Positions 1,563-16,883 are shown, counted from the stretch's first letter. The stretch is 32,000 bases of DNA from Burkholderiales bacterium (GCA_020697255.1 JAJFBE010000007.1:93410-125409), one strand, 5' to 3'. The notes: generated from the letters alone by a model not told the origin. Numbers and translations are program-made.

Positions 1563-2267
1563 CTAATAAGATTTAAAATTATCGTAAGCTTCCTTACTAT
1601 ACCATTTGTAATTTGGATTATTAAACCCGGCTAAAAAAACATCACTTAAAATCCCGCATTTAGCACCATTTGGTGATAAATTAGTGCCGTTCTTCATTAT
1701 AGTCCAGATAATATTACCTTCACTGTTACTATTTTTAGAGACTTCGTAATTATTACCTTTTTCATCTAACCATACATATTTGCTTCTAGTATTTGCAATT
1801 GACATATCAATAGGTGTACCTAAATCTCTTTCAGGAGGCTGCATATTATCTGTAAAGCTTGTCGGGTATGAAGTGTATACTCTATCACTGTCTTTAGTAT
1901 AAGACCATGACAAAAACGTATAAGGATGCGGCCCTTCCTCTTTATCATTATAAAAAAAACAAACCCTTATAAGTTTATTATCTTGTACAACTCCTCTACC
2001 TGAGCATACTGTAGCAAGGTTATCTGCAATAGTGATATTTTTTATACCATCTGCTACTTTTGATGTAAAGTCACAACCAGTAGTATCAGACCATCTATCG
2101 TCTAAAACTTGTCGGCTACTCACCCAATATGCCCAGTATGCATATTTTTTACAGGTATAACTTTCTTCTTTATCTAAATTTTTTAAATAACAAACTGCTT
2201 CTGTAGCAAAGATATCTGTACTATAGATGCAAAGTATTAATATAAAAAAATGTTTTAGTTTATTCAT
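1563..2267 (-). CDS. Secreted six-cysteine protein, lineage-specific family (paralog A)
   Basis: 234 aa. Signal peptide MNKLKHFFILILCIYSTDIFA/TEAV. It shares ordered blocks with 2322-3018 and 21766-22638: CY..YTC, TVCSG, IRVCFFY, YTFLSWSYTK, GAKCGIL and an aromatic-rich C-terminal tail. Confidence 0.75.
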   Translation of the reverse strand: MNKLKHFFILILCIYSTDIFATEAVCYLKNLDKEESYTCKKYAYWAYWVSSRQVLDDRWSDTTGCDFTSKVADGIKNITIADNLATVCSGRGVVQDNKLIRVCFFYNDKEEGPHPYTFLSWSYTKDSDRVYTSYPTSFTDNMQPPERDLGTPIDMSIANTRSKYVWLDEKGNNYEVSKNSNSEGNIIWTIMKNGTNLSPNGAKCGILSDVFLAGFNNPNYKWYSKEAYDNFKSY

Positions 2268-2321
2268 TATACAACCATCTTTATCAATCTCTTATAAAAT
2301 TTATGCAACACTTATATTACC

Positions 2322-3018
2322 CTAAAAAAGGGGTGGTAACTTTTTAAAATCATCCCAGGTATAATTGCTGACATCTATAACTCCAGGGGTTATAACTAGC
2401 CGGCACTTAGCATGCTCAGCCAAAGTATAATCATTTCTTTTTAATACCCACTCGCCTCCATTGAGAGGAAGTGTATATGCAACATACCTGCCTGAACCAT
2501 TTGTCCATTCATAATGACTGGTATTATCGCCAGGTAATAACTTTCCTATAGTTTTTGAACTTACAGGAATAGCAGTGCTTACCCCACTAGCAGTATAAAT
2601 TTTTCTGTCAGTATCATTCTTATTGTAGCTCCAGGCCAAAAGTTTGTATTTTTGGCTGGACATTTCGTAATAAACACAAACCTGGTTTACTTGATAATCG
2701 ATTGTTGCACTAGAACATAAATTTGAGAGCGTAAGCTCATTAAATTCATTAGGGCTAGAGAATCCAGGTCCATGGGAGCCTGAGCGAAATACCAGAGTAT
2801 TTTCATCACAATCGCTCCTTGACCTCCATCCACTACCATTTGATAATGAAATATCTACCCACCTGGCCTCCCATAACGATGCGAAAATATTGCCGTAATC
2901 TTTTTCAAGACAAACACAAATACTGCCTTCCCGGATAGCAGGAAGCTGCTGTAGCAGCATAGCTATTTACAGCACTGATGCAAAAAACCAGCCATAACAT
3001 ATACTTTAATTTATGCAT
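2322..3018 (-). pseudogene. Secreted six-cysteine protein family, paralog B, disrupted by a frameshift (or needs recoding or a sequence correction)
   Basis: The track ORF (2322-2960) lacks a signal peptide. Manual translation of another frame from ATG 3018 gives MHKLKYMLWLVFCISAVNSYAATAASCYPGRQYLCLS*, with the stop at 2905-2907. This matches the N-termini of paralogs A and C (signal peptide, then SCY...Y-x-C). The body continues in the track frame (..CLEKDYGNIFASLWEARW..). The total span of 697 nt is 1 mod 3, consistent with a 1-nt insertion or 2-nt deletion somewhere in ~2905-2941 (a TGTGTTTGT / GAAAAAG context). Confidence 0.7.
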
Positions 3019-3245
3019 GACACACCTTCTTGAAAAATACATCGAGCACATAAAGGCTAAACGAACCATAATCACTAGATTTTATCATAGTTATAAAAAG
3101 TTTTCAAGGCCAGTGTTGATAAAAATATTTATTGAACGGCTGGGTTGCATGTACTGTTCTTCTTCCTCAATAAATAAACTCTCCTGCTTAAGGCACAAAT
3201 CCGTTAAAATTAGGGGTTAATATTTTATGATTACGGACCAGGCAA

Positions 3246-4487
3246 ATGAATCAAAATAGAGCACTGTTTAGCATATTTTTAACCATATTTATCGCTTTAC
3301 TGGGAGTAGGAGTACTTATCCCCATATATCCGTTATTGGTAGTTTCCCATTCACCATTTAGAGTAATTCCAGACTCCTGGTCATCTGGTTCTGGGCTACT
3401 AATGCTTGGTTGGTTAAGTGCCTCATTCCCTATGGCACAATTTATCTCTTCACCAATCTGGGGACAGTTATCCGATAAGTTCGGCCGCAAAAGAACTATG
3501 CTTTTATCAGTATTTGGTACTTCAATATCTTATTTATTATTTGCCATAGCAATTATATACAAAAATATTCCATTACTTTTTTTCTCGCGGATAATGGATG
3601 GTTGTGCTGGTGGAAATATAGCTATTGCCCAGGCAGCAATTGCAGACATTAGTACTCCGCAAAACAGAGCTAAAAACTTTGGGCTAATCGGAATGGCTTT
3701 TGGTCTGGGTTTTATTATAGGACCAGTAATTGGTGGAGTTTTTTCTAATCACAATTTGGTCAGCTGGTTTAATGCAGCAACACCATTTTATTTTATTGCC
3801 GGATTATGTTTTTTCAACATGTTTTTTATAATTAAATTTTTACCTGAAACATTAAAAATAAGAAGCGAAAAACGTATAAATATTACAAAACCACTTCATA
3901 ATATCGCTATGGCATTTTCAAAACCAGGCCTTCGCAATATAATGCCTGCAATTTTTCTGTTTAACGGTGGTTTTACCTTTTTTAGTACATTCTGTGCTGT
4001 AATAATGGCCTCCAAATATCATTTCACACAAACAGCTATTGGCAATTATTTTGCTTATGTTGGGGTAATGATTGTCTTATCCCAGGGCATTTTAGTCAGG
4101 AGGATTGCAAAAGTTGCCAAAGATTACCAGGTATTACGGTTTAGCTTATTTGGGACGGGTATTTGTTTAATGGCATATTTCTTTATTCCTACCGGCTCCT
4201 ACTATTTATTATACGTCATACCACCTTTTTTAGCCGGGTGTAATGCCCTAACCATGTCATTTAACGGAGCGCTAATAACCCGGGTTACGCCTGAGAATAT
4301 GCGCGGAGAAGCAATGGGAATTAATTCTAGCGTTATGGCTATGTCCTGGGCAATTCCGGCAATAATATCAGGATATATCGCAAGTATTGGAGAAACATTA
4401 CCTATACTTGTTGGCAGTATTGTTTGTATAAGTGGCGGCGTGTGCTTCTGGTTAATGTTTAATCCAAAACAATTCCCTAACGTTTAA
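3246..4487 (+). CDS. MFS transporter, DHA1/TetA-like drug:H+ antiporter family
   Basis: 413 aa and highly hydrophobic, with about 12 TM segments. MFS motif A, GQLSDKFGRKR, lies after the second TM segment. The gene ends 13 nt before prlC. Confidence 0.85.
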   Translation: MNQNRALFSIFLTIFIALLGVGVLIPIYPLLVVSHSPFRVIPDSWSSGSGLLMLGWLSASFPMAQFISSPIWGQLSDKFGRKRTMLLSVFGTSISYLLFAIAIIYKNIPLLFFSRIMDGCAGGNIAIAQAAIADISTPQNRAKNFGLIGMAFGLGFIIGPVIGGVFSNHNLVSWFNAATPFYFIAGLCFFNMFFIIKFLPETLKIRSEKRINITKPLHNIAMAFSKPGLRNIMPAIFLFNGGFTFFSTFCAVIMASKYHFTQTAIGNYFAYVGVMIVLSQGILVRRIAKVAKDYQVLRFSLFGTGICLMAYFFIPTGSYYLLYVIPPFLAGCNALTMSFNGALITRVTPENMRGEAMGINSSVMAMSWAIPAIISGYIASIGETLPILVGSIVCISGGVCFWLMFNPKQFPNV

Positions 4488-6619: not shown

Positions 6620-6662
6620 CTATTTGATACTATTTTCATCAGATACGGGACCCTTGCTAGTT

Positions 6663-8594
6663 ATGAAAACTCTACCCAAAATTAAATTTACCAGTTATTT
6701 ACATTTATCAATCTTTACAATAGGAATTTATAGCTTTAGCGTGACAGGTTTAGCCCTTAGCAACCTATCAACACCAGTTTATACTTCTGCATCGGCTGCC
6801 ATAAAACTTGATAAAACAAATTTTGGCGGGGGTTTTGTCCTGGAAGACTGGTTCTTTGCCCGGGATACTGTTGGTCATAATGTGTCATCAACATGTGAAG
6901 AAGCAAAAAATGGGGGCGTGGGTAGTAGCCAGGTATTTATTGGGAATGCCCTGGTAAAACAAGTAGCGGACTTCACCTGGACCTCTGAAACCGATTTAAT
7001 TAAAAAATTGTCTGGTCATGGTTATTCTCCAGAAGATATTGAAAAGATTTTCCAATACCATCGTGATACATATTTGGGTAAAACCTTAGAAAATAATGAA
7101 GTAGTATTCACCAAATTGCGTGAGGCTAAAGCCACCGGCATAAAAATAATACGTCTACCAATAACCTGGGCAATACAATATGACAAATCATATACATTTA
7201 CTAAGCCAGATGGACAGGTAGTTACCCTACCTGCGGAGTACGACATTAAAGGAAACACTATAGCTAATGTTCCTAAAAGTAATGGCAATGTCCAGCTAAT
7301 TCAGGATCCTTTTTATTCGGATAAAAAATGGGCAAGTATCCCAATTAGCCAGATCGAAGCAGTTTTAAAAGGAGCAAACCAACTTGGAATGCAAGTTATC
7401 CTGGATGTACATGCATTTCCGGGTGGCTCCAGTGATGGCACATACAATGGAGTTTGGCCTGATGCCCCAAGGTTTTGGCTGCCTAAAAAAGAAGTTTATC
7501 AAGCTAACTTCAGGGCTATTTTTGATAGGCTGGTTGCCTGGGCAAGTGACTTAAAAGAAACCGACCCTGCCGCATTCGCGGGGTTAGCCGGTCTAACACC
7601 AATGAATGAGCCAGCCCATCTTATGGGGTTTTTGGAAATATCCAAAAATGAACCGTTACTTTCAAAAAAACCTGTATGTAGCGCTACTGACAGCACCGGC
7701 AAAATTATATCCTGGGGAGTACAGCCAAAAGATGTGCTAGATACATTGGCTCTTGCAGTAGAAGATTTTAGGGCATCAGTATTATCGAAAACGCAGGTAA
7801 AATTAGTTATGAATGTAATTGAAACCATGTATAACCCCAATGACTATAATCCAAAAGATCAAAAAACGTACCCATTTAGCCTTATAGGAAACTGGTGGTT
7901 GGGCATAACCAGCCCTGAAGAGCGGAAAGTGTGGGCTGCTGTAGATATTCATCACTATGTGGCCTGGGATGGCGGTTGTAATAATGTCCTAACAGCAAAG
8001 CATCCACTATACAACCAAACCGGTGACCTGCAATGGAATGATCCGGGCGTATGGAAGAGTCCGATTTTTGAAAAAGATAGCTCAGGTAAAACAATCCTGC
8101 AATATGCCATAAAAAATCCCGATGGAACTTATACAATTATAGATAATGATAATTTTAATAAAACGTATAAAAAAACTGATGGTACGCTTTTTGTAGACAA
8201 TCGAAATGGCTTTGCCCAGATTAAAGCTTGTAGTACATGGTTTTTGAATGTACGTAGAGAGCTTGGAATTTTAGATAATAACGAGCTGGTATTTGCCAGC
8301 GAGTTTAGTGCCGGAACCAATTCTGATTCTTGGAAATCTGGCTCTAGCGGACGGGCACTTAATAACAATAAGCCTATAACTATTACAAATTTTGATACCT
8401 ACCGTAATACCTTCCTCGAGGCACAGGTTAAGAATGCTGCGGAAGCAAGCGTAGAAGCTATTTTCTGGACATGGAAGATCGAAAATAATAACTTTTCAGA
8501 CTGGAGCCTGTCTACTATATGTAATAGTGCTAAAAAACCAAGTGTGTGCGGCGGCAATAGCAATGCTAATGCCAATAGCTATCCTGCCTATTAA
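6663..8594 (+). CDS. Secreted glycoside hydrolase family 5 (beta-glucanase / exo-1,3-beta-glucanase-like)
   Basis: GH5 landmarks occur in order: IIRLPITWAI, VILDVHAFPGGSSDG, LTPMNEPAH (acid/base Glu), VDIHHYVAW, VFASEFSAG (nucleophile Glu). The track start is TTG at 6624. ATG at 6663 gives MKTLPKIKFTSYLHLSIFTIGIYSFSVTGLALS, a signal peptide, so it is preferred. Confidence 0.8.
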   Translation: MKTLPKIKFTSYLHLSIFTIGIYSFSVTGLALSNLSTPVYTSASAAIKLDKTNFGGGFVLEDWFFARDTVGHNVSSTCEEAKNGGVGSSQVFIGNALVKQVADFTWTSETDLIKKLSGHGYSPEDIEKIFQYHRDTYLGKTLENNEVVFTKLREAKATGIKIIRLPITWAIQYDKSYTFTKPDGQVVTLPAEYDIKGNTIANVPKSNGNVQLIQDPFYSDKKWASIPISQIEAVLKGANQLGMQVILDVHAFPGGSSDGTYNGVWPDAPRFWLPKKEVYQANFRAIFDRLVAWASDLKETDPAAFAGLAGLTPMNEPAHLMGFLEISKNEPLLSKKPVCSATDSTGKIISWGVQPKDVLDTLALAVEDFRASVLSKTQVKLVMNVIETMYNPNDYNPKDQKTYPFSLIGNWWLGITSPEERKVWAAVDIHHYVAWDGGCNNVLTAKHPLYNQTGDLQWNDPGVWKSPIFEKDSSGKTILQYAIKNPDGTYTIIDNDNFNKTYKKTDGTLFVDNRNGFAQIKACSTWFLNVRRELGILDNNELVFASEFSAGTNSDSWKSGSSGRALNNNKPITITNFDTYRNTFLEAQVKNAAEASVEAIFWTWKIENNNFSDWSLSTICNSAKKPSVCGGNSNANANSYPAY

Positions 8595-8710: not shown

Positions 8711-9427
8711 TTAATTACTATCTGAATCCGAACCTGTATCTGTATCTGTATCCGAACCTGTATCCTGATCTAGATCTTTAATATAGAAAGGAAGTGCTTT
8801 ATTTATCAAAAAATTATGTTCATTGTCTGCATCGTTAGGCTCATAGTATCCTACTTTGTAATTAGTTATTTTTAGCTTACACTGAAACCAGATCCCACTA
8901 CTACCGGAGATTTTTTCAGCACGGGGATTGCCATCACCATCGAAAGACATTGTAAAAAAACCCGTAGCTCTCCAGTATTTAGGGGAAAGTTTACTTTGTT
9001 CCAGCTTTGAATCTGCTGGGTATATATATCCTGACGTAATAGTACTTGTTATAGGATCTGCATTACCAAAATACCCCCCCTTATAGTTAAATATATTAGG
9101 ATAATAAAAGTTGCTTTTTAAATTCGAACCCGAACATTTTTCTAAAGGGGTATTAGCTGCCCAACATGACAAATATATGTACCTAACTATATGTTTCCCT
9201 TCTTTTCTACCTATAATTTCCTCCTGGTTTTGTTCCACTTCCCATAAATTGGTAATGCTTGGGTCATTTATAACCCTTTTTTCGCCATTTGCATATTTTA
9301 TTGTAATTTGCTGTGGAATAGGCTTGCAAAGTAAATGTTCATAAGTTTTTATTTCAGCTATACATACACATGGTATAAACGTAATAAATAAACCAGATAA
9401 AAAACTTTTTAAAGATAATTTTTTCAT
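8711..9427 (-). CDS. Secreted hypothetical protein with an acidic D/T/S/G-repeat C-terminal tail
   Basis: Start re-set to ATG 9427 (MKKLSLKSFLSGLFITFIPCVCIA/EIK, a signal peptide); the track start at 9535 adds 36 non-signal residues. The C-terminus is DLDQDTGSDTDTDTGSDSDSN, encoded by a gaacctgtatc-type DNA repeat at 8714-8770. The blocks FQCKLKI...KALPFY may be distantly related to the six-cysteine family. Confidence 0.6.
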   Translation of the reverse strand: MKKLSLKSFLSGLFITFIPCVCIAEIKTYEHLLCKPIPQQITIKYANGEKRVINDPSITNLWEVEQNQEEIIGRKEGKHIVRYIYLSCWAANTPLEKCSGSNLKSNFYYPNIFNYKGGYFGNADPITSTITSGYIYPADSKLEQSKLSPKYWRATGFFTMSFDGDGNPRAEKISGSSGIWFQCKLKITNYKVGYYEPNDADNEHNFLINKALPFYIKDLDQDTGSDTDTDTGSDSDSN

Positions 9428-9601
9428 TTCACATCCTAATAAGAAAACACCAATATCAATTAGATAAATATTTATAATTATACCATTTTCCAGGGATTTC
9501 TGCTGGCCTTTCATTTTTACAGCATAGAGGAACACTTTATGTCATCCTCGGACTTTTTCTAGGGATCCATAATGCTTATAATAAATTTGGATTATTAAAA
9601 A

Positions 9602-12403
9602 TTAAGCTATATTCTTAATTCTGTTATCATCGGTTTTTAAAATAACAGTCAGATATGGCGGAATGATAGCAGGATCAATTTCTTCGCCAGTTAGCATTAC
9701 CAAATTGGTAAATCCCTTTTTGTTTAATTTTTTTGCTATTTCTATCCCATCCCCGATATATTTAGGTTTTAGGCCCCAATTTTCGGAATAAAAATGGTCA
9801 AGCACAATTTTGGTATTTAACGGATACTGCTCTACATCCTCAAGAAAAACATTCGGATTACTGTACATATCAACTTTTAGATGCGGGAAAAAGCGCTCAA
9901 CATACCCATGTACAAAACCCAAATCATCATCGACACATACCATGTCTACTTTTTTACTGCCTTGCTTTATTTGTTTATCCACATTTATGGCAACAGCAAA
10001 AACTAGTTCTTTCGGCAGGATTTTAACTCCTAGATTCGCAGCTCTTTCACGTATTTCAATATTATCATAGTGGCTTGTGACCAAAGTAGAGCGTTTAATA
10101 TTAATTTGCTCTACTACCTGTAACCCATTTATACCATGGTTTAATAATTCATAATCAGTTAACATACAAACTTTATCTCTCTCTTTGACAGATAAAGAAT
10201 TTATAAAATTAATAACATCTACGCCTTTAGTAAAATGTTTTATTGTAAGGCTATCTGATAATTTAGCCAAAATAGGTTCAAATTTCGAGTCCCAGGTACC
10301 ATGAATCGAATCATCGTCATCTAAAACTATTATGGTATCGCCTTTGATGATTTTAACCTCTTCTGCGATCCAACCTGGTGATGGAATTTTAGGTAGCCTT
10401 AACATAATCGAACTACACTCTCCCTCAGTAGAATGTATTTTAAACTCCCCGTAATTACGTTTTAATGTTTCACGAACCTGCGTTAGACCAATTCCGTGAC
10501 CATCCTTCTTACCTGAAGTAACACTAAAATTTCCCTCTATTTTATTAATTAATTCCTGGGACATGCCACAGCCGTTATCTTCAATAAAAACATTTATCCA
10601 GTCAGGTATAATATTAAGCTCAACCTTAATTTTACCATCTGGTTTGTCACCTAGTGCCTGAACCGAATTATTAATAACATTAGAAATCATTCGTTTAAAC
10701 TGCCCCGGTTCTACCTGAGTAAAAGAAAAATAGGCATTTAGCGAGAAATCAGTCTCGATAATAATATTTTTATGTTCAAACCGCTTTTCACTCACGACTT
10801 CGCTTAAAGCCGTTGATACTAGCATCGATTCTGCCAGCTCGTTATTATTTACTTCTTTTTTATAGCTGCCAAGCATATGGCTGGCAATAGCGCTAATACG
10901 CATTGATGCCTGACGTAGGGTGATACGTTTTTGCTCCGGCATAATACCTGCCGTATCCTCTACTATCCCGCGCAGGCTGGCTAGCGGCGATTGAATATCA
11001 TGTACCATCTGCCCAACTATTTTTCTAAACTTTTCCTGCTCCTCTGCAGCAGCTGCAGCCTTTTGTTTTTCATTTTCTAATTTTTGTAATTCATTTTCTA
11101 GTCTAAGGCGTTCTGTTTCTTTTTCTGCCGCCTCTTTTTCTAAAAGCATTTGCTTCATTTTATTTTCTGCTTCTAGCTTTCGGTTCTCATGTTTTAAGCG
11201 TTCAGCTTCTTTCAAAGCAATAAGCTTTTCCTTTTCAGCTAAAGTAGCTTTACTTGCCTCATTTTCAAACTTTAACTGCTCTGCTTCTTTTTGTGCAGTT
11301 ATATCAATTGATATACCAACGAGTCCTATTATTTCTTTATTGCTATTATAAAGAGGGACTTTATTTGACAGAAATACTCCTTGCTTACCATTAGGTAAAT
11401 TCCCAGGTTCTTCCAGTGAAACAGGATTCCCACTCATAACCTCCCAATTAGCCTGATCTAGCTCAGTAACTAATTGATCAGCGCCCTTATTCCAGGGTAA
11501 ATCTTTATTTCTCAACCCAACAATGTCTTTTCTTGATCCAAGCCCGGCTGACTTTGCCTGGTTATTATTGCAACCCAAATAAACACCATTTGTATCTAAC
11601 CAGTAAACATGGCCAGGCATAATAGCAATTATATTTTCCAACATTTCCAAATATTCTTTGTCTTTGGTTAAATCATTAATACTGTTAACGCTGTCAAATA
11701 TCCGGGGCTTAAACTGATCCGCATGTCTAAACCTAATTGTAGCAGGATGTAATAACTCCGGATACTTTGGCAATACGAATTTTTTATGTGTTGCACTCAT
11801 AGCCTCATTTCTAGGCCCTGGATAAACTTCAAATTGACAATTCAAGGATGTCCATAAACATAATGCTGCGCATTCCTCGGTTAAATAAGCCATAGAAAGC
11901 TGCTTAGCACGGCTTATGTTAAAATTACTATCAGGGCTAGATCTTTTTCTCGATTTGTCAACAAAATTTTCTACAACTTTATCAAATTTAGCTTTATAAG
12001 CCGGATCGGTTTTTATGGCCTCTCTAATCATATTATTGTGCTGTTTGAAGTTGTCATGCTTAAGCCATTGGTCCCAATGTAATATTTTATAAGGGATAGT
12101 TAAGCTATCATAATATTGTTTATTTCTCTGCAACCAATTCCTACCTTCCAGTATTGCTAAGTTATAATAATCATCTGGAGATTTATCACTATTTAAGGCC
12201 ATAGTATAACGTTGTAAGCTATCATCAACTAAAATAATACATGATTTAAAAGATTTATTAATTAGGTCAATTGTCAGCTTAAAAAGCTCTCCTTCGTGCA
12301 TTTCTTGCCCCACACTAATAGTTAAAAGACAGGCAGAGTCAGCAAATTGTGCTTTTTGCTCTAAACTAATATTTTTAAATGCAATTTTTATTTTATTTTC
12401 CAT
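9602..12403 (-). CDS. Cytoplasmic hybrid sensor histidine kinase: cyclodipeptide-synthase-like N-domain + PAS + coiled coil + HisKA/HATPase_c + two receiver domains
   Basis: 933 aa with no TM segment. PAS at aa ~245-370. E/K-rich coiled coil at ~372-460. H-box VH468DIQSPL, N-box NVINNS, G1 EDNGCGM, G2 GHGIGL. REC1 has DD695/696, D750 and LVTS; REC2 has VCVDDD, D869 and MLTG. For the N-terminal 235 aa see the findings. GGAG lies 11 nt upstream of the ATG. Confidence 0.85.
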   Translation of the reverse strand: MENKIKIAFKNISLEQKAQFADSACLLTISVGQEMHEGELFKLTIDLINKSFKSCIILVDDSLQRYTMALNSDKSPDDYYNLAILEGRNWLQRNKQYYDSLTIPYKILHWDQWLKHDNFKQHNNMIREAIKTDPAYKAKFDKVVENFVDKSRKRSSPDSNFNISRAKQLSMAYLTEECAALCLWTSLNCQFEVYPGPRNEAMSATHKKFVLPKYPELLHPATIRFRHADQFKPRIFDSVNSINDLTKDKEYLEMLENIIAIMPGHVYWLDTNGVYLGCNNNQAKSAGLGSRKDIVGLRNKDLPWNKGADQLVTELDQANWEVMSGNPVSLEEPGNLPNGKQGVFLSNKVPLYNSNKEIIGLVGISIDITAQKEAEQLKFENEASKATLAEKEKLIALKEAERLKHENRKLEAENKMKQMLLEKEAAEKETERLRLENELQKLENEKQKAAAAAEEQEKFRKIVGQMVHDIQSPLASLRGIVEDTAGIMPEQKRITLRQASMRISAIASHMLGSYKKEVNNNELAESMLVSTALSEVVSEKRFEHKNIIIETDFSLNAYFSFTQVEPGQFKRMISNVINNSVQALGDKPDGKIKVELNIIPDWINVFIEDNGCGMSQELINKIEGNFSVTSGKKDGHGIGLTQVRETLKRNYGEFKIHSTEGECSSIMLRLPKIPSPGWIAEEVKIIKGDTIIVLDDDDSIHGTWDSKFEPILAKLSDSLTIKHFTKGVDVINFINSLSVKERDKVCMLTDYELLNHGINGLQVVEQINIKRSTLVTSHYDNIEIRERAANLGVKILPKELVFAVAINVDKQIKQGSKKVDMVCVDDDLGFVHGYVERFFPHLKVDMYSNPNVFLEDVEQYPLNTKIVLDHFYSENWGLKPKYIGDGIEIAKKLNKKGFTNLVMLTGEEIDPAIIPPYLTVILKTDDNRIKNIA

Positions 12404-13143
12404 AATATTATGCTCCGCTATGCTAAATTAATACTCTTTTACAAACTAGTACTTGGTAAAGTATTTATATTTTATAATCAGGATAATAATGAATTAATAT
12501 GTTATCGTGTCTTACTAACCTATGTATTACAAGTAATATGTTTATTACATCAAACCCTATAAATATTAGTAATGAAATGCTTTGCACATTTTACCATTTT
12601 ATAAGTTTCACTATTTGTGGAATAAACAATATAGCATTTATAAAAACACCAATTCCTATTATAAATTCTATAATATTTACGAAGGAACGCATACATAGTC
12701 CCGATATGGTAATTATTTACAATTGTTTTTAAAGACAAGCATATAGGTGGATAAGAATAATTTTCTATTATAGCATGTTGATAAATTTGTGTAACTATTT
12801 TATTTAGTATAAGCAATTGTATAAATATGACTCCAAATTTAGCAATTTCATTTTTTAAGTAGATATAGTTTAATAACTGCCTACACATATAGATGTTTAT
12901 AAGGTTTGTGAAAAACCTGGTAATTATATCCTCATAAACATAATGAACATTGTATAATTGTAGTCTAATTCTGAGTAATATAGTTAACTTTTTTGTGGCT
13001 TATATAAAATTATATATTATCATATTATTTTATTGAAGTTATAAAGTTTAACGTATTTTATATAACCTGCTCGTTTAATTATCTTCTTATTATAACTTCA
13101 GTATAAAATTATTTTAATTTTTTGTTATAAGAGAGAATTTTAA

Positions 13144-14508
13144 ATGACGCTAGCGCAAAATAGTTCATTAGATAATGTTAAACCCCTTACAGGGTATGAA
13201 GTTTATAAAACATTACTCCTAGTAAACCCTGAATTAGCTAAATGTATAAAAAATTACATTACTAATGATGAAATAATTGCTTTTAAAGCAAGCTACCCTT
13301 TTGGCAGTAAAATCATTAAGAATCGTGAAGTATTCTTACCACTTGATAACGGTGAAAGCATATCGTTTAATGATCAAAGGTTACCCTCATTATTACGTGA
13401 ACATCTGAGCTATAATCCAGGAGTTAATAATCCAGTCGGAATAATTTTAAGTAAAGACTCTGAATTTTATATGCAGCATAACGACCGTGTTGAATCTTAT
13501 CAAATAGTATCCCCGGGACATTTAATTGGTTTTGCACATATCATGGACAGTGTTGCATCACCCAAAAATCCCAAAGTTCAGAAAAAAATATATATTTCTG
13601 ATTTAGATTTGGATGCAGGCGCTAGGTTACTTTTTATGCTGGCTAATATATCTAATAGCCAGCAACATAACAATTTACTGGAAGCATATGGAATAAATAT
13701 TGCTAAACCTACTGATTATATGCAGCAATGCAATATTTTTAGAGCAATTAGTAATAGTGCACCGTCATGGGCACAAGATATTATATTTTTTTCAAATAAA
13801 TTTTCAAATGAATTAATCATAGACCCAACAAAGAGAGAACTATATGCACAATTTAGCCATACCCATCGTTCGGCTTATACTGTATGGCATTATGCAATTC
13901 GTACCTGGGATAGTGAGATCAACAGGATAATGAGTGCAACAGGAGCAAATGATTATTCGTCTTATGCTGTAAATATTGCCAAACATTTATTTTTAATTGC
14001 TATCGGCGGCGCTCCTGGTTTTGCCCCGGTAATTGACGACAGAATGTGCCCAAAATCACTAATAGAAGAAGCATATACAACCAAAGGATATGGCTTGACA
14101 AGACAATGGCCTACTCTTATGCAGCCAGAGATATTTAATTTGGAAAACAATCAGCCGGTTTATTACTCACCAAATTTATCTACGTTATTTAACTTTAACC
14201 CGGAAACATTTAAAGGTAAAACAGTTATCGATCTTCTGGATAAGGTATTAACTGTTGTCAACTTATGCCAAAATTATGTATTAAAGAACTTAAAAAGCAA
14301 AGAATCATATTTATATGACATTATGAAAAGCGTGAAATTTTCTTTTTATCACAGTAATCCCGATCCTGAAAACTTTAGCCGGGAGATTAAGAATAGTCTA
14401 CTGCTACCTGAAGAAGACGCACGATTTCATAAACATGGCTGGGTTTTCCCTAACCTAAGCCATTTTGTACGTGGATGTATCAAAATTGAGCCAATAAGTA
14501 ATGCATAA
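13144..14508 (+). CDS. Hypothetical protein (454 aa), no recognisable family
   Basis: Long uninterrupted ORF with normal amino-acid composition. A GAGAG purine tract lies ~9 nt upstream of the ATG. No signal peptide or TM segment. It is divergent from the hybrid kinase gene. Confidence 0.6.
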   Translation: MTLAQNSSLDNVKPLTGYEVYKTLLLVNPELAKCIKNYITNDEIIAFKASYPFGSKIIKNREVFLPLDNGESISFNDQRLPSLLREHLSYNPGVNNPVGIILSKDSEFYMQHNDRVESYQIVSPGHLIGFAHIMDSVASPKNPKVQKKIYISDLDLDAGARLLFMLANISNSQQHNNLLEAYGINIAKPTDYMQQCNIFRAISNSAPSWAQDIIFFSNKFSNELIIDPTKRELYAQFSHTHRSAYTVWHYAIRTWDSEINRIMSATGANDYSSYAVNIAKHLFLIAIGGAPGFAPVIDDRMCPKSLIEEAYTTKGYGLTRQWPTLMQPEIFNLENNQPVYYSPNLSTLFNFNPETFKGKTVIDLLDKVLTVVNLCQNYVLKNLKSKESYLYDIMKSVKFSFYHSNPDPENFSREIKNSLLLPEEDARFHKHGWVFPNLSHFVRGCIKIEPISNA

Positions 14509-14509
14509 T

Positions 14510-14529
14510 ATAACAACCTTCGGTGTTAT
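14510..14529. terminator. Small hairpin filling the 20-nt gap between convergent stops (454-aa gene / parB)
   Basis: ataacaacc-ttc-ggtgttat: 8 bp with one bulge and a tight loop. The stem is AT-rich, so this is weak. Confidence 0.25.
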
Positions 14530-15410
14530 TAGCCGACAAGTTCAAGTAGCCGATCCAGCTCATCCAGCGTAGCATAGCTAAGAACTATCTTACCGCTACC
14601 TGTACGTCCATGTTTGATGCTAACCATCATTCCCAGTTTGTCAGCTATCTTGGTTTCAAGTTTACCAATATCCGGGTCAGCAGCTAACTTGCTCTTAGTC
14701 TTTTTATGCGGCGTATTTTGATGTAATATCTTGGCTACCCGTCGTTCTACCTCAGCAGTAGTGAAATCATTGTCTATTGCCAAATTAGCCAAGGCAAGCT
14801 GTACCGTTTCCCCCAAAGGCAATAATGCCCTGGCATGCCCCATGTCCAACTGTCCACGGATAACCATGTCTTGTACTTCAGGGTGTAAGTTTAGCAGGCG
14901 TAATGTATTTGAAATGTGGCTACGGGAGCGTCCGGTAACTTTGGATAATTCAATATGTGTTAATTTAAATTCATCAATCAGGCGTTTATAACCGAGGGAC
15001 TCTTCTATAGCATTTAAATCTTTACGCTGGATATTTTCTATAAGTGATACGGCAAGAGCTTCCTGGTCGCTAAATTCACGGATAATTGCCGGAATTTGCT
15101 TAAACCCAGCCAAATTACTGGCACGAAACCGCCGTTCACCGGCTATAATTTCATATTGGCCGCTCTTTATCTCGCGAACCACAATTGGTTGAATAACCCC
15201 GTTACTTTTTATTGAATCCGATAGTTCCTGTAGTTCCGTCTCATCAAAAGCCTTACGTGGCTGGAATTTTCCCGGCTTAATTTTATCTAATTTAATTTCC
15301 AAAACCTGAACCGACTTATCATTCTTATCTATTTTGGAAGATGTTCCTACAGACGTGGATGCAGAAAGCAGTGCATCCAGCCCCTTACCCAAACCTTTTA
15401 ATTTTGCCAT
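14529..15410 (-). CDS. parB: Chromosome partitioning protein ParB (Spo0J)
   Basis: N-terminus MAKLKGLGKGLDALL, the ParB box IIAGERRFRA, and an HTH region. It follows parA with a 1-nt gap. Confidence 0.95.
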   Translation of the reverse strand: MAKLKGLGKGLDALLSASTSVGTSSKIDKNDKSVQVLEIKLDKIKPGKFQPRKAFDETELQELSDSIKSNGVIQPIVVREIKSGQYEIIAGERRFRASNLAGFKQIPAIIREFSDQEALAVSLIENIQRKDLNAIEESLGYKRLIDEFKLTHIELSKVTGRSRSHISNTLRLLNLHPEVQDMVIRGQLDMGHARALLPLGETVQLALANLAIDNDFTTAEVERRVAKILHQNTPHKKTKSKLAADPDIGKLETKIADKLGMMVSIKHGRTGSGKIVLSYATLDELDRLLELVG

Positions 15411-15411
15411 T

Positions 15412-16254
15412 TTATAACCTTTTTAATAATTCTTTTGCTAACCCCATATATGCAACAGAGCCGCTTGCCTGCGGGTCAAAAACCACTCCCGGCAAACCAA
15501 AACTTGGAGCTTCAGCTAAGCGTACATTTCGGGGAATAAATGTCTTAAACATCTTTTTACTAAAATGAGTAAATAACTGCTCTGAAACTTGCAACGATAA
15601 ATTGTTCCGCCCATCAAACATGGTACGGACAATTCCCAATAGTTTTATATCCGGATTCAGGCCATTTTTTAAACGGTCAATAGTATTTAATAAATCAGTC
15701 AACCCTTCTAATGCATAATATTCACATTGAATCGGAACTAAAATATAATTTGTTGCAATTAAACCATTTAAAGTTAGTAAACTCAGCGATGGTGGACAAT
15801 CCAGAAGAATGATATCATAAGAATCTTTAAGTTTTACCAAGCTATTTTTAAGCCTTGACTCACGTTTATCCAAATCAACTAATTCAATTTCTGCACCGGA
15901 TAAGTTTCTATTAGCAGGGATAATATCAAAACCGGATTTATCCATATGCAAGATTGCACTTCCTACATCTACATCATTAACCAAAACCTCATATATTGAA
16001 GTTGCCAATTGATTTTTATCTATACCACAGCCTGTTGTTGTATTACCCTGCGGGTCCAGATCAATTACTAACACTTTTTTCCCTTTACGGGCTATGGCAG
16101 ATGCCAGATTTAATACAGTGGTCGTCTTGCCTACACCGCCTTTTTGGTTTACTACTGCAATTATATTTTTAGCTGCTTTATTATCCATCAAATTTCTGCT
16201 TAATTCCGCAGAAACTCCGCTTTGCTTCGTTTTCATATCTTCATTTCTAAACAT
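15412..16254 (-). CDS. parA: Chromosome partitioning ATPase ParA (Soj)
   Basis: Deviant Walker A NQKGGVGKTT, then DLDPQGN and ILLDCPPSL. Alternative in-frame ATGs at 16236 and 16188 would give the more usual short N-terminus (MDNKAAKNIIAVVNQKGG). Confidence 0.92.
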   Translation of the reverse strand: MFRNEDMKTKQSGVSAELSRNLMDNKAAKNIIAVVNQKGGVGKTTTVLNLASAIARKGKKVLVIDLDPQGNTTTGCGIDKNQLATSIYEVLVNDVDVGSAILHMDKSGFDIIPANRNLSGAEIELVDLDKRESRLKNSLVKLKDSYDIILLDCPPSLSLLTLNGLIATNYILVPIQCEYYALEGLTDLLNTIDRLKNGLNPDIKLLGIVRTMFDGRNNLSLQVSEQLFTHFSKKMFKTFIPRNVRLAEAPSFGLPGVVFDPQASGSVAYMGLAKELLKRL

Positions 16255-16271
16255 TCATCGTCTTTAAATTC

Positions 16272-16883
16272 TTATTTTAATTTTTTATACTTTAAAAGTA
16301 TACGTTCATCATCTACACCCGGAATTTTAACTTTAATTTGTTCACAATTTATAACTTTTTCATCTACTTTACTTTTCATCGCTAAAAAATATCCGCCATC
16401 GGCTAGTAAGTGATACGTTAGATCAATAAAAAGCCTTGTGTTAGCAAATGCCCGGGATATAATAACATCAAATTTTTGTTTTGGGATATATTCTTCTACC
16501 CGGCTACATACAACATCTATATTTGTTAAATTAAGTTCAATTGCAACCTGTTTTAAAAATGTACATTTTTTCTGGCTGCTATCTAATAAGGTAAACCGGA
16601 TTGTTGGGTACCAAATGCCTAAAACCACTCCCGGGACACCCATGCCGCTACCAACATCAATAATATTTGCCGCCTCTGTAACATAAGGCGCAACAGTCAA
16701 ACCATCAAGCAAATGGTGCGTTATGATATGCTTTGTTTGCACAATTGCAGTTAAGCTATAAACCTTATTCCATTTTTGAAGTAAGCCGGTATATGCAATT
16801 AGTTGATCTACTTTTTCCTCATCTGGAGTTAAGCCAAGCTCGTTAATACCATTAATTAATAGTTTCGTTTGCTCATGTGTCAT
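16272..16883 (-). CDS. rsmG: 16S rRNA (guanine527-N7)-methyltransferase RsmG (GidB)
   Basis: 203 aa. SAM-binding motif IDVGSGMGVPGVVLG. Canonical position upstream of parAB. Confidence 0.9.
   Translation of the reverse strand: MTHEQTKLLINGINELGLTPDEEKVDQLIAYTGLLQKWNKVYSLTAIVQTKHIITHHLLDGLTVAPYVTEAANIIDVGSGMGVPGVVLGIWYPTIRFTLLDSSQKKCTFLKQVAIELNLTNIDVVCSRVEEYIPKQKFDVIISRAFANTRLFIDLTYHLLADGGYFLAMKSKVDEKVINCEQIKVKIPGVDDERILLKYKKLK

Follow-up and report, generated by a model that had tools for sequence, protein, structure and literature searches.

The locus studied here raises the question of whether a single gene can place a cyclodipeptide synthase (CDPS) and a histidine kinase on one polypeptide and, if so, what such a protein would do. 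A sequence-only reading of the window (the whole 32,000-nucleotide stretch of Burkholderiales DNA that was analysed) had proposed this fusion, in the form of a 933-aa open reading frame (ORF) lacking a transmembrane segment. We found a single intact ORF at 9602-12403 on the minus strand that translates without a stop into 933 residues, and no transmembrane segment is evident in the protein, whose best 19-residue Kyte-Doolittle mean is 1.38. The residues that had been singled out all lie at the positions named: S30 (in LLTISVGQ), Y173 and E177 (in AYLTEEC), Y194-P195 (in FEVYPG), H468 (in VHDIQSPL), D750, and D869. A GGAG ribosome-binding site precedes the ATG by 9 nt, within the intergenic region. 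The gene and its upstream region are organised as follows.

9602..9952, minus strand: receiver domain 2, roughly aa 818-933 plus the stop codon (alignment, weak profile matches, AF2 and Foldseek)
9980..10342, minus strand: receiver domain 1, roughly aa 688-808 (alignment A2; AF2 and Foldseek)
10379..10783, minus strand: catalytic ATP-binding domain, roughly aa 541-675 (Pfam HATPase_c at 568-672, E 1.9e-15)
10784..11023, minus strand: putative DHp region, roughly aa 461-540, with H-box VH468DIQSPL (alignments to NCBIfam kinase models start near 461)
11024..11299, minus strand: E/K-rich coiled coil, aa 369-460 (translation; the model helix runs on from residue 369)
11300..11647, minus strand: VqmA-like PAS domain, aa 253-368 (Pfam PAS_4, Foldseek, profile against the PDB)
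11648..11716, minus strand: linker, aa 230-252, predicted disordered (AF2 pLDDT < 50 over 230-252)
11717..12403, minus strand: XYP-type CDPS domain, aa 1-229 (phmmer, and AF2 model against 5OCD)
12404..13143, no strand: intergenic region 5' of the fusion gene, AT-rich, about 27-30% GC
12465..12692, minus strand: broken PQ-loop (SemiSWEET-like) gene with one in-frame TAA at 12591-12593

Contigs of two soil-metagenome runs, each from a different study, contain 9500-13200 with no difference and no gap, the CDPS-PAS junction included (the window itself may derive from one or both of these runs). Among the public runs listed as containing the sequence, none was an RNA dataset. An assembly or sequencing artefact that fused two separate genes, one for a CDPS and one for a PAS-kinase, might be suspected, given that the window comes from a metagenome and that a CDPS gene more commonly stands alone with a PAS-kinase gene behind it, but we consider it highly improbable: the two runs agree without an indel across the junction, and four close and more than 10 distant homologues from other samples have the same order and a conserved junction, RFRHAxQxKP. 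Fused homologues (P0002, P0004, P0005, P0011, L003/L011, L007, L009 and nine long 50%-cluster representatives) have this architecture in common while their CDPS domains are 28-80% identical. Eight of the nine long representatives carry CDPS, PAS, HisKA, and HATPase domains, seven of these with a receiver; the ninth, P0164, has the PAS domain only. When 155 CDPS domains are placed on a tree, at least 8 gains or losses are required to explain the distribution of the fused state, 7 of them forced by well-supported branches. The CDPS-PAS-kinase fusion is real and recurs in metagenomes, in many uncultured bacteria. The earlier suggestion that it had no described example agrees with our literature searches, which found no CDPS-histidine-kinase fusion; the architecture is not unique to the window.

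The assignment of the N-terminal region to the XYP subfamily of CDPSs is borne out by comparison with solved enzymes. Residues 5-227 match the CDPS of Fluoribacter dumoffii (5OCD) at an E value of 9e-56 in a phmmer search of the PDB, which also returned 5MLQ (2e-28), 6Y4B (3e-10), and 5MLP (1.5e-8). An AF2 model of aa 1-385, with pLDDT mostly 85-97 over the CDPS part, has the class-Ic aaRS-like Rossmann fold of CDPSs; this predicted structure matches 5OCD with a TM score of 0.93-0.95 and an rmsd of 1.3-1.7 Å, and Nbra-CDPS (TM 0.9), AlbC, and Rv2275 are matched as well. By HMMER and a 155-sequence alignment, Ser37, Tyr178, Glu182, and Tyr202 of AlbC align with S30, Y173, E177, and Y194, and the Ser-to-Tyr spacing is 143 aa, as had been stated. 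The XYP signature is present as Q33 (non-Asn at position 40) and Y194-P195 (equivalent to Tyr202-Pro203). The four catalytic residues are kept in 20/20 fused homologues, and P195 in 16/20; their retention at such divergence fits selection on catalysis. The model places putative tRNA-binding strands at residues 5-10 and 219-227, where K6-I-A-F9 is an exact match to the β2 motif KphiXF and I223-R-F-R-H227 a near match to the β7 motif L(R/K)FKK, which mark basic strands that bind the tRNA acceptor stem (PMC7566563).

Profile-HMM searches with curated models, which had been proposed as a check, gave weak results: Pfam CDPS (PF16715) has no match in the 933-aa protein, and NCBIfam TIGR04539 scores 27.2 bits (E 2.4e-6), below its cut-off of 45. 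The thresholds of the curated models are unreached throughout the clade of the fusion's CDPS domain, and because the whole clade shares these scores, we attribute them to model coverage and not to non-membership. That the curated models miss the clade also accounts for the labels 'ATP-binding protein' or 'ArcB' borne by the fused proteins. Because the structural and pairwise evidence is overwhelming, the CDPS match stands as significant. Judged by alignment and predicted structure, aa 1-229 is a complete XYP-subfamily CDPS domain, and catalysis is predicted for it.

The pocket motifs of this domain are LTLDWALE (P1) and VNFKGRN (P2). The matched Fluoribacter enzyme, Fdum-CDPS (CDPS 33), is a cyclo(Gly-Gly) (cGG) synthase that shares with the fusion about 40% identity, the catalytic residues, the XYP signature, and the tRNA-binding strands, but it is a stand-alone 257-aa enzyme from a different clade of the tree, with the pocket motifs LPLDWVME and NDFRSRN. 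Since the motifs differ, cGG cannot be assumed as the product. In a published table of motifs, P2 VNFKGRN was not found and only P1 matches an entry, that of the inactive CDPS 32 (EKD46099, uncultured bacterium ACD_69C00020), a clearly related sequence with an identical P1 but with SGFKIHN as P2. CDPS 32, the one assayed enzyme that shares this P1, yielded no cyclodipeptide when expressed in E. coli (PMC5816076, supplement). As far as sequence goes, the pockets resemble those of Fdum-CDPS but differ from them, and the identity of the diketopiperazine is not predictable.

If the CDPS domain makes a small heterocycle, the adjoining PAS domain is a candidate to bind it. Pfam PAS_4 matches residues 266-372, and the domain carries the conserved motifs PGHVYW, GCN, and FLSxK348xPL, in which S346 and K348 are invariant (alignment A3). 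Whether judged by fold or by sequence profile, its nearest solved relative is the PAS domain of VqmA from Vibrio cholerae, a cytoplasmic receptor composed of a PAS domain and a LuxR-type helix-turn-helix (HTH) that recognises the autoinducer 3,5-dimethylpyrazin-2-ol (DPO). VqmA chains are the first non-CDPS matches in Foldseek (E about 1e-8, 22-23% identity), and VqmA is the top PDB match of the PAS profile (E 4.6e-11). VqmA K101, which hydrogen-bonds DPO (bioRxiv 10.1101/2019.12.19.881847), aligns with the invariant K348, so that the ligand-contacting lysine is conserved. In contrast, VqmA F99 aligns with the invariant S346, and F67 falls opposite an aliphatic residue, in a stretch where an indel makes the alignment ambiguous. 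Because the DPO-stacking Phe pair is not conserved, the PAS ligand is probably not DPO; a related but different ligand would fit. DPO is a small six-membered N-heterocycle made from amino acids and read by a cytoplasmic PAS receptor, as proposed here, and the PAS-LuxR-HTH architecture of VqmA recurs at a paralogous locus directly after a stand-alone CDPS. The two proteins nevertheless share only about 22% identity, the output of the fusion is a kinase, and threonine dehydrogenase, which makes the signal for VqmA, is neither related nor linked. We predict small-ligand binding by the PAS domain from these alignments and models. A predicted complex of the CDPS and PAS domains scored 0.04, which counts neither for nor against docking.

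For the kinase half, the PAS domain, coiled coil, H-, N-, G1, and G2 boxes, and receivers are as the sequence-only reading described them, except that the receivers escape Pfam and rest on predicted structure. The coiled coil holds the repeats KEAERLKHEN and KETERLRLEN, and the ATP-binding boxes read NVINNS (N), EDNGCGM (G1), and GHGIGL (G2). Pfam HisKA has no match in the 933-aa protein but matches more distant fused relatives. No Pfam receiver domain was found in the protein, and a profile of residues 676-933 gave only weak receiver matches in the PDB (E about 0.1). An AF2 model of this region (pLDDT 92) consists of two (βα)5 domains that match tandem receivers (PleD, 3MF4) and single receivers at TM 0.6-0.69 (Foldseek). 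In receiver 1, D695/D696, D750, T776/S777, and K798 are invariant in 25 relatives (alignment A2); in receiver 2, D869 and K923 are invariant and D825/D826 nearly so. A search for Hpt domains (PF01627) found none in the genome, for which marker genes indicate 100% completeness over 10 contigs, and no response regulator gene lies near the fusion gene; an output partner was not identified by these searches. With no Hpt found in the genome, the receivers probably end the relay instead of belonging to a classical His-Asp-His-Asp chain.

Stand-alone relatives of the CDPS domain show the same partnership in unfused form. Among 11 that were examined, the next gene is a PAS-kinase in four (L005, L008, L010, L019); one has a convergent PAS-kinase (L006), two a PAS-LuxR gene (L002, L020), one a truncated PAS gene (L021), and one a PQ-loop gene (L014), while of the remaining two, one has no such gene and one was inconclusive. 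The PAS domains beside stand-alone CDPSs are 37-60% identical to that of the fusion. The Fdum-CDPS gene likewise lies 111 bp from a convergent PAS-PAS-kinase-REC-Hpt gene of the same PAS type. In CDPS clusters, PAS domains rank high in frequency among domains without a biosynthetic role, and a part in quorum sensing has been suggested for them (PMC5767969). In the genome of the window, moreover, the same PAS-kinase-REC-REC module ends two nonribosomal peptide synthetases (NRPSs), one of 4,390 aa (formyltransferase, three A-T-C modules, and reductase, then the kinase module) and one of 2,401 aa (C-A-T-R, then the kinase module).

These arrangements bear on the possibility that the kinase controls the synthase, with receiver or PAS domains docking on the CDPS domain and switching diketopiperazine synthesis in response to some other cue. 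A precedent for contact of this kind is the Xanthomonas Rpf system, in which RpfC holds the DSF synthase RpfF by its receiver domain. As in the fusion, a signal synthase is there physically tied to the hybrid kinase that senses the signal; the likeness is an analogy only, since RpfF and RpfC are held together non-covalently, RpfC lies in the membrane, a fatty acid serves as the signal, and the sequences are unrelated. A covalent link would ensure 1:1 stoichiometry, receivers with no visible downstream partner in a genome without Hpt would be free for an intramolecular role, and attachment of the module to NRPSs would suit a general regulator of synthases. We nonetheless think such control unlikely: the enzyme sits at the N terminus, on the input side, with about 460 residues and a coiled coil between it and the receivers; some stand-alone CDPSs have as partners PAS-LuxR transcription factors, which lack a receiver; and the predicted disorder of the linker and a low pTM (0.59) give no hint of a fixed domain arrangement.

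The region upstream of the fusion gene offers a candidate transporter. The PQ-loop remnant there is 40% identical over 60 aa (E 2e-14) to an intact PQ-loop protein encoded upstream of the paralogous CDPS, and its TAA is found in both soil-metagenome assemblies; the gene is thus broken here. PQ-loop genes also lie upstream of four other synthase or PAS cassettes, and relatives of the fusion have an intact PQ-loop gene upstream. A 112-aa ORF at 12550-12888, which is AT-rich, of odd composition, and overlaps the remnant in another frame, was dropped as probably spurious. For the 420-aa proteins that occupy the 'synthase slot' of two other cassettes, Pfam, NCBIfam, the PDB, and the Atlas gave no match, and profile comparison showed no similarity to CDPSs. 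Of the genes flanking the fusion, P0125 (8711-9535, 274 aa, secreted-looking) gave no family match or informative Atlas match, and P0127 (13144-14508, 454 aa) has no family match and is unrelated to the 418-aa CDPS-like ORF of L004. Other neighbours encode an MFS transporter, an M3 peptidase, a GH5-like protein, and parAB, rsmG, prfA, and hemA; with no oxidase, P450, or methyltransferase near the fusion gene, the reading as a biosynthetic cluster was dropped.

A cytoplasmic chain that holds both synthase and receptor would be exposed first to its own product, which fits poorly with the sensing of cell density. It is conceivable instead that the CDPS domain senses charged tRNA and that the kinase reports the translational or nutritional state rather than cell density. 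A surplus of particular aminoacyl-tRNAs could yield a local diketopiperazine read immediately by the PAS domain, or else the domain could be a catalytically silent module that binds aminoacyl-tRNA or diketopiperazine. Sensing of the product in cis, the retained tRNA-binding strands, the inactivity in E. coli of CDPS 32 with its identical P1, and decay of the candidate transporter would all agree with a role of this kind. Yet a mere binding module would not need the catalytic residues that all 20 fused forms keep, relatives retain an intact upstream PQ-loop gene, and the NRPSs fused to the kinase module use no tRNA. We give little credence to charged-tRNA sensing in either variant.

The account that we favour, and hold to be somewhat probable, is that the fusion gene encodes a soluble, cytoplasmic synthase-receptor kinase that acts as a signalling unit. 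The CDPS domain would bind two aminoacyl-tRNAs through its basic β2 and β7 strands, pass through aminoacyl-Ser30 and then dipeptidyl-Ser30 intermediates with the help of Tyr173, Glu177, and Tyr194, and release a small 2,5-diketopiperazine. This heterocycle or a derivative may be taken up by the PAS domain, in a pocket equivalent to that of VqmA for DPO, with Lys348 as the presumed hydrogen-bond donor. Occupancy would be relayed through the coiled coil to autophosphorylation of His468, and the phosphoryl group would move to Asp750 and/or Asp869, where the receivers probably close the relay, either through contacts with proteins or by serving as a phosphate sink. The PQ-loop protein, whose gene is the usual upstream partner, may carry the molecule across the membrane, and transport of this kind would make the whole an autoinducer-like circuit.

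[quoted passage not shown] Like the fusion, they begin with a CDPS of about 240 aa that is followed by another domain. Their partners serve tailoring or export, however, whereas the partner here is a complete signal-transduction module. VqmA-like, synthase-linked PAS domains, which are putative sensors, occur in Legionellales, Aquella-like Neisseriaceae, and Rickettsiales-labelled and other uncultured Pseudomonadota. We suggest, tentatively, that they make up a widespread class of peptide-heterocycle signalling units that has gone unrecognised, in which the synthase would be a CDPS or, in the genome of the window, an NRPS, and a SemiSWEET-like PQ-loop protein is often the likely transporter.

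Whether diketopiperazines are true bacterial signals is a long-standing and unsettled question that rests mainly on effects on LuxR biosensors. For many Gram-negative XYP-type CDPSs, the cGG-making Fluoribacter enzyme included, which have no tailoring genes nearby, we know of no established purpose. Repeated fusion and splitting of CDPSs with one PAS type gives a testable set, with enzyme, product, PAS domain, and kinase brought together on one polypeptide. If the proposal is true, the diketopiperazines that many XYP CDPSs make and leave unmodified would be genuine signals, read by dedicated receptors in the cytoplasm, and the fused form would detect what it makes itself or report the supply of aminoacyl-tRNA. 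The kinase module that ends two NRPSs hints that the wiring of biosynthetic enzymes to phosphorelays may be general.

The gene is a single ORF of 933 codons at window positions 9602 to 12403 (minus strand), with an ATG start and GGAG 9 nt 5' of it. On translation, the landmark residues picked out by the sequence-only reading (S30, Y173, E177, Y194-P195, H468, D750, and D869) were all found at their claimed positions, and the translation also contains the coiled-coil repeats and the three kinase boxes N, G1, and G2. The absence of a transmembrane segment was likewise borne out: the highest 19-residue Kyte-Doolittle mean is only 1.38, and thus the protein should be soluble. The region from 9500 to 13200 showed no differences and no gaps relative to contigs of two soil-metagenome runs from two studies. 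Since one or both runs may be the source of the window, this check of the reading frame is weak but real. An origin of the fusion as an artefact is very unlikely.

A phmmer search of aa 1 to 250 against all PDB chains returned only cyclodipeptide synthases (CDPSs):

5OCD, Fluoribacter dumoffii CDPS (Fdum-CDPS), E 9e-56, aligned region 5-227
5MLQ, Nocardia brasiliensis, E 2e-28
6Y4B, Candidatus Glomeribacter gigasporarum
5MLP, Rickettsiella grylli

An AlphaFold2 model of aa 1 to 385, made from 14 fused homologues (mean pLDDT 85), superposes on 5OCD with a TM score of 0.93 to 0.95 and an rmsd of 1.3 to 1.7 Å, as expected from the CDPS fold proposed earlier. HMMER aligns S30, Y173, E177, and Y194-P195 with their catalytic counterparts (Ser, Tyr, Glu, and Tyr-Pro) in the solved enzyme, in agreement with the catalytic assignment made from the sequence, and places Q33 at the variable "X" position of the XYP subfamily. 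XYP enzymes hold the tRNA acceptor stem via two basic strands with the consensus KphiXF and L(R/K)FKK (PMC7566563); the corresponding strands of the window protein are K6-I-A-F9 and I223-R-F-R-H227. The Pfam CDPS profile, suggested earlier as a check, failed: PF16715 has no match in the protein, and TIGR04539 scores 27 bits, below its cut-off of 45. This failure of the curated CDPS HMMs explains why relatives carry the database names "ATP-binding protein" or "ArcB".

After residues 230 to 252, which are disordered in the model, the protein continues with a Pfam PAS_4 domain (266 to 372), about 90 residues of E/K-rich helix, the H-box, and HATPase_c (E 1.9e-15). Pfam detected no receiver domain in it. 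A model of aa 676 to 933 (25 homologues, pLDDT 92) contains two (beta-alpha)5 domains, and the PDB entries closest to it are tandem-receiver proteins (PleD, 3MF4/3LUF) and single receivers; the acidic pair, acceptor Asp, Thr/Ser, and Lys are kept in both, which is consistent with the two receivers read from the sequence, with the fold taken from the model. The window's genome (G000; 2.33 Mb, 100% complete by marker genes) encodes many two-receiver hybrid kinases and has no match to the Pfam Hpt model. Dozens of PAS domains of the window protein's type are present in it, with 38 matches to aa 250 to 933.

In Foldseek, the model of aa 1 to 385 matched CDPS structures first and then Vibrio cholerae VqmA (6KJU, 6IDE, and 6UGL; E about 1e-8, 22 to 23% identity), whose chains ranked above LOV, BvgS, and other PAS domains. 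Independently of Foldseek, the best PDB sequence for a profile of 14 such PAS domains was also VqmA (E 4.6e-11). VqmA is a cytoplasmic receptor, composed of a PAS domain and a LuxR-type helix-turn-helix (HTH), for the autoinducer 3,5-dimethylpyrazin-2-ol; F67 and F99 stack on the ligand ring, K101 hydrogen-bonds the carbonyl, and the K101R substitution kills binding (bioRxiv 10.1101/2019.12.19.881847). K101 aligns with K348, which is invariant among the fused proteins, whereas F99 aligns with an invariant S346 and F67 with an aliphatic residue. The PAS pocket may therefore be related to that of VqmA and tuned to a non-aromatic heterocycle, e.g., a diketopiperazine. These data show that a complete XYP-CDPS domain, catalytically equipped as judged from its residues, forms one polypeptide with a hybrid kinase whose PAS domain is VqmA-like.

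The same domain order is found in close relatives from other samples (P0002, 892 aa; P0005, 863 aa; and P0004, 988 aa), whose CDPS domains are 64 to 80% identical, and farther out in P0011 (1,007 aa, 31% CDPS identity) and a genus-mate (L003/L011; 862 aa, 28%). An exhaustive CDPS-domain search yielded 1,120 cluster representatives at E up to 0.001, and about one-tenth of the best 150 of these are long proteins. When 10 long representatives were scanned with Pfam, 8 had PAS, HisKA, and HATPase domains, 7 of them with a receiver; the other two had PAS only (P0164) or no Pfam match (P0220). An additional PAS domain lies N-terminal to the CDPS in P0185, P0238, and L009. The named examples belong to metagenome-assembled genomes whose labels read Rickettsiaceae, Pseudomonadota, Neisseriaceae, and Aquella. 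In a maximum-likelihood phylogeny of 155 CDPS domains, fusion must have been gained or lost at least 8 times, and branches supported at SH-aLRT 95 or above force 7 of these changes; the tree is a quick search with no mixture model, and branch support is to be taken with some caution. The window protein belongs to a four-member fused clade (99), and the second CDPS of its genome, a stand-alone protein of 225 aa that is 36% identical, is sister (97) to the fused P0011. Two other CDPS-like proteins were noted. P0121 (460 aa, JGI metagenome) has two matched CDPS stretches and appears to be a tandem CDPS-CDPS protein. A 418-aa ORF immediately 5' of a PAS-kinase in the same genus (G009, L004:763-2019) is weakly CDPS-like in its C-terminal half (TIGR04539 E 7e-5; BLAST 3e-7 to aa 62 to 207 of the window protein) and could represent a CDPS that has decayed or diverged strongly.

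Stand-alone CDPS genes of this clade keep similar company. Among 11 whose flanks were inspected, four have a PAS-kinase a few bases 3', one has a convergent PAS-kinase, two are followed by a PAS protein with a LuxR-type HTH, and a truncated PAS gene or a PQ-loop gene comes next in one case each; of the remaining two, one has no recognisable partner in its flanks and one gave no clear reading. A gap of 111 bp separates the Fdum-CDPS gene from a convergent PAS-PAS-HisKA-HATPase-REC-Hpt gene (L031:6001-9356, F. dumoffii contig) whose PAS domains are 40 to 48% identical to that of the window protein, and Legionella dresdenensis (L006) has the same arrangement of CDPS and convergent kinase. Overall, the neighbours' PAS domains are 37 to 60% identical to the window PAS over 120 residues, with PGHVYW, GCN, and FLSxKxPL in common. 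That CDPS clusters often contain PAS domains, perhaps for quorum sensing, has been remarked before (PMC5767969); in the literature searched, we found no covalent CDPS-kinase fusion, this specific PAS type, or the PQ-loop link. Fusion or tight adjacency of a CDPS and a VqmA-like PAS partner is recurrent and evolutionarily labile.

Immediately 5' of the window gene is a PQ-loop/SemiSWEET-like gene (12465-12692, minus strand) broken by one in-frame TAA (12591-12593) that is present in both metagenome assemblies. Orthologues of it, intact, stand ahead of the fused genes in P0002 and P0011, and an intact PQ-loop gene likewise comes before the stand-alone CDPS of G000. The window's genome has four intact PQ-loop genes, each opening a cassette with a PAS protein of this family as its last member:

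L002 (G000:C7:499235-502897): PQ-loop (965-1306), CDPS (1489-2166), PAS-PAS-LuxR (PAS-PAS-GerE, 2195-3358)
L028 (G000:C10:201000-206500): PQ-loop, 884-aa A-T-TE NRPS-like enzyme, PAS-PAS protein
L027 (G000:C5:72500-77200): PQ-loop, 420-aa protein of unknown family, PAS-kinase-REC-REC
L029 (G000:C5:166000-171500): PQ-loop, 421-aa paralogue of the 420-aa protein (28% identical), PAS-LuxR-like protein, PAS-kinase

At L002, the protein 29 bp 3' of the CDPS has the architecture of VqmA, with a LuxR-type HTH after the PAS domains. The 420-aa family, which has no match in Pfam, NCBIfam, PDB, or Atlas, occupies the position held by the synthase in the other cassettes. The PAS-kinase-REC-REC module also forms the C terminus of two NRPSs of this genome, 60% and 44% identical to that of the window protein, both with a terminal reductase:

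G000:C1, L022:2376-15548, plus strand: 4,390 aa; formyltransferase, three A-T-C modules, reductase, PAS, kinase
G000:C7, L026:898-8103, minus strand: 2,401 aa; C-A-T-R, PAS, kinase, about 530 further residues

A similar protein occurs in Aquella (P0027), and no description of NRPS-histidine-kinase fusions was found in the literature searched. The lower identity of the NRPS-linked PAS domains to the window PAS (28 to 31%) and the Arg at the K348 position suggest that they would bind another ligand.

No tailoring enzyme is apparent near the window gene, which lies among housekeeping genes such as parAB and rsmG. The immediate flanks of the gene are as follows:

8711-9535, minus strand: 274 aa, hydrophobic segment at the N terminus and tail rich in Asp, Thr, and Ser; same strand as the window gene and 66 bp 3' of it
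13144-14508, plus strand: divergent 454-aa protein

Neither flanking protein could be assigned to a family. A 264-aa gene 3' of the fused gene of P0002 resembles the 274-aa gene in size, length alone being compared. A 112-aa ORF (12550-12888, minus strand) is probably not a gene, given its odd composition; it sits in a 740-bp intergenic region (12404-13143, 27 to 30% GC) with the PQ-loop remnant in another frame. A 656-aa ORF (6624-8594, plus strand) has a sub-threshold glycoside-hydrolase-5 (cellulase) match as its sole match. The window gene is near parB-parA-rsmG (14529-16883), and the fused gene of P0011 adjoins rpmH-rnpA-yidD-yidC (L016:11162-13650); both are typical origin-proximal neighbourhoods.

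Pocket positions were defined after Jacques/Gondry and taken from the 155-sequence alignment. This reading returns the published motifs of Fdum-CDPS (P0137), a cyclo(Gly-Gly) synthase, exactly (LPLDWVME/NDFRSRN); the window protein and the two proteins most closely related to it have LTLDWALE/VNFKGRN. The P1 motif is identical to that of CDPS 32 of an uncultured bacterium, an enzyme inactive in E. coli (PMC5816076, supplement); the product is therefore not predictable, and activity is not to be assumed.

We consider it somewhat probable that the CDPS domain makes a small diketopiperazine, that the PAS domain binds this product, and that the kinase reports binding. Control in the other direction, with the kinase acting on the synthase as RpfC does on RpfF, seems unlikely. 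It is also conceivable, though in our judgement quite unlikely, that the CDPS domain senses aminoacyl-tRNA or serves as a silent module for binding; sensing in cis within a single chain and the decay of the PQ-loop gene pose real difficulties for cell density as the only thing sensed, and they keep alive the notion that tRNA supply is what is reported.

The component families are all known and the CDPS-PAS neighbourhood has been remarked on before, so this is not a new category. The window protein provides a specific candidate receptor for CDPS products and a testable one-protein system, and it belongs to a wider and apparently undescribed pattern of synthase-kinase fusions.
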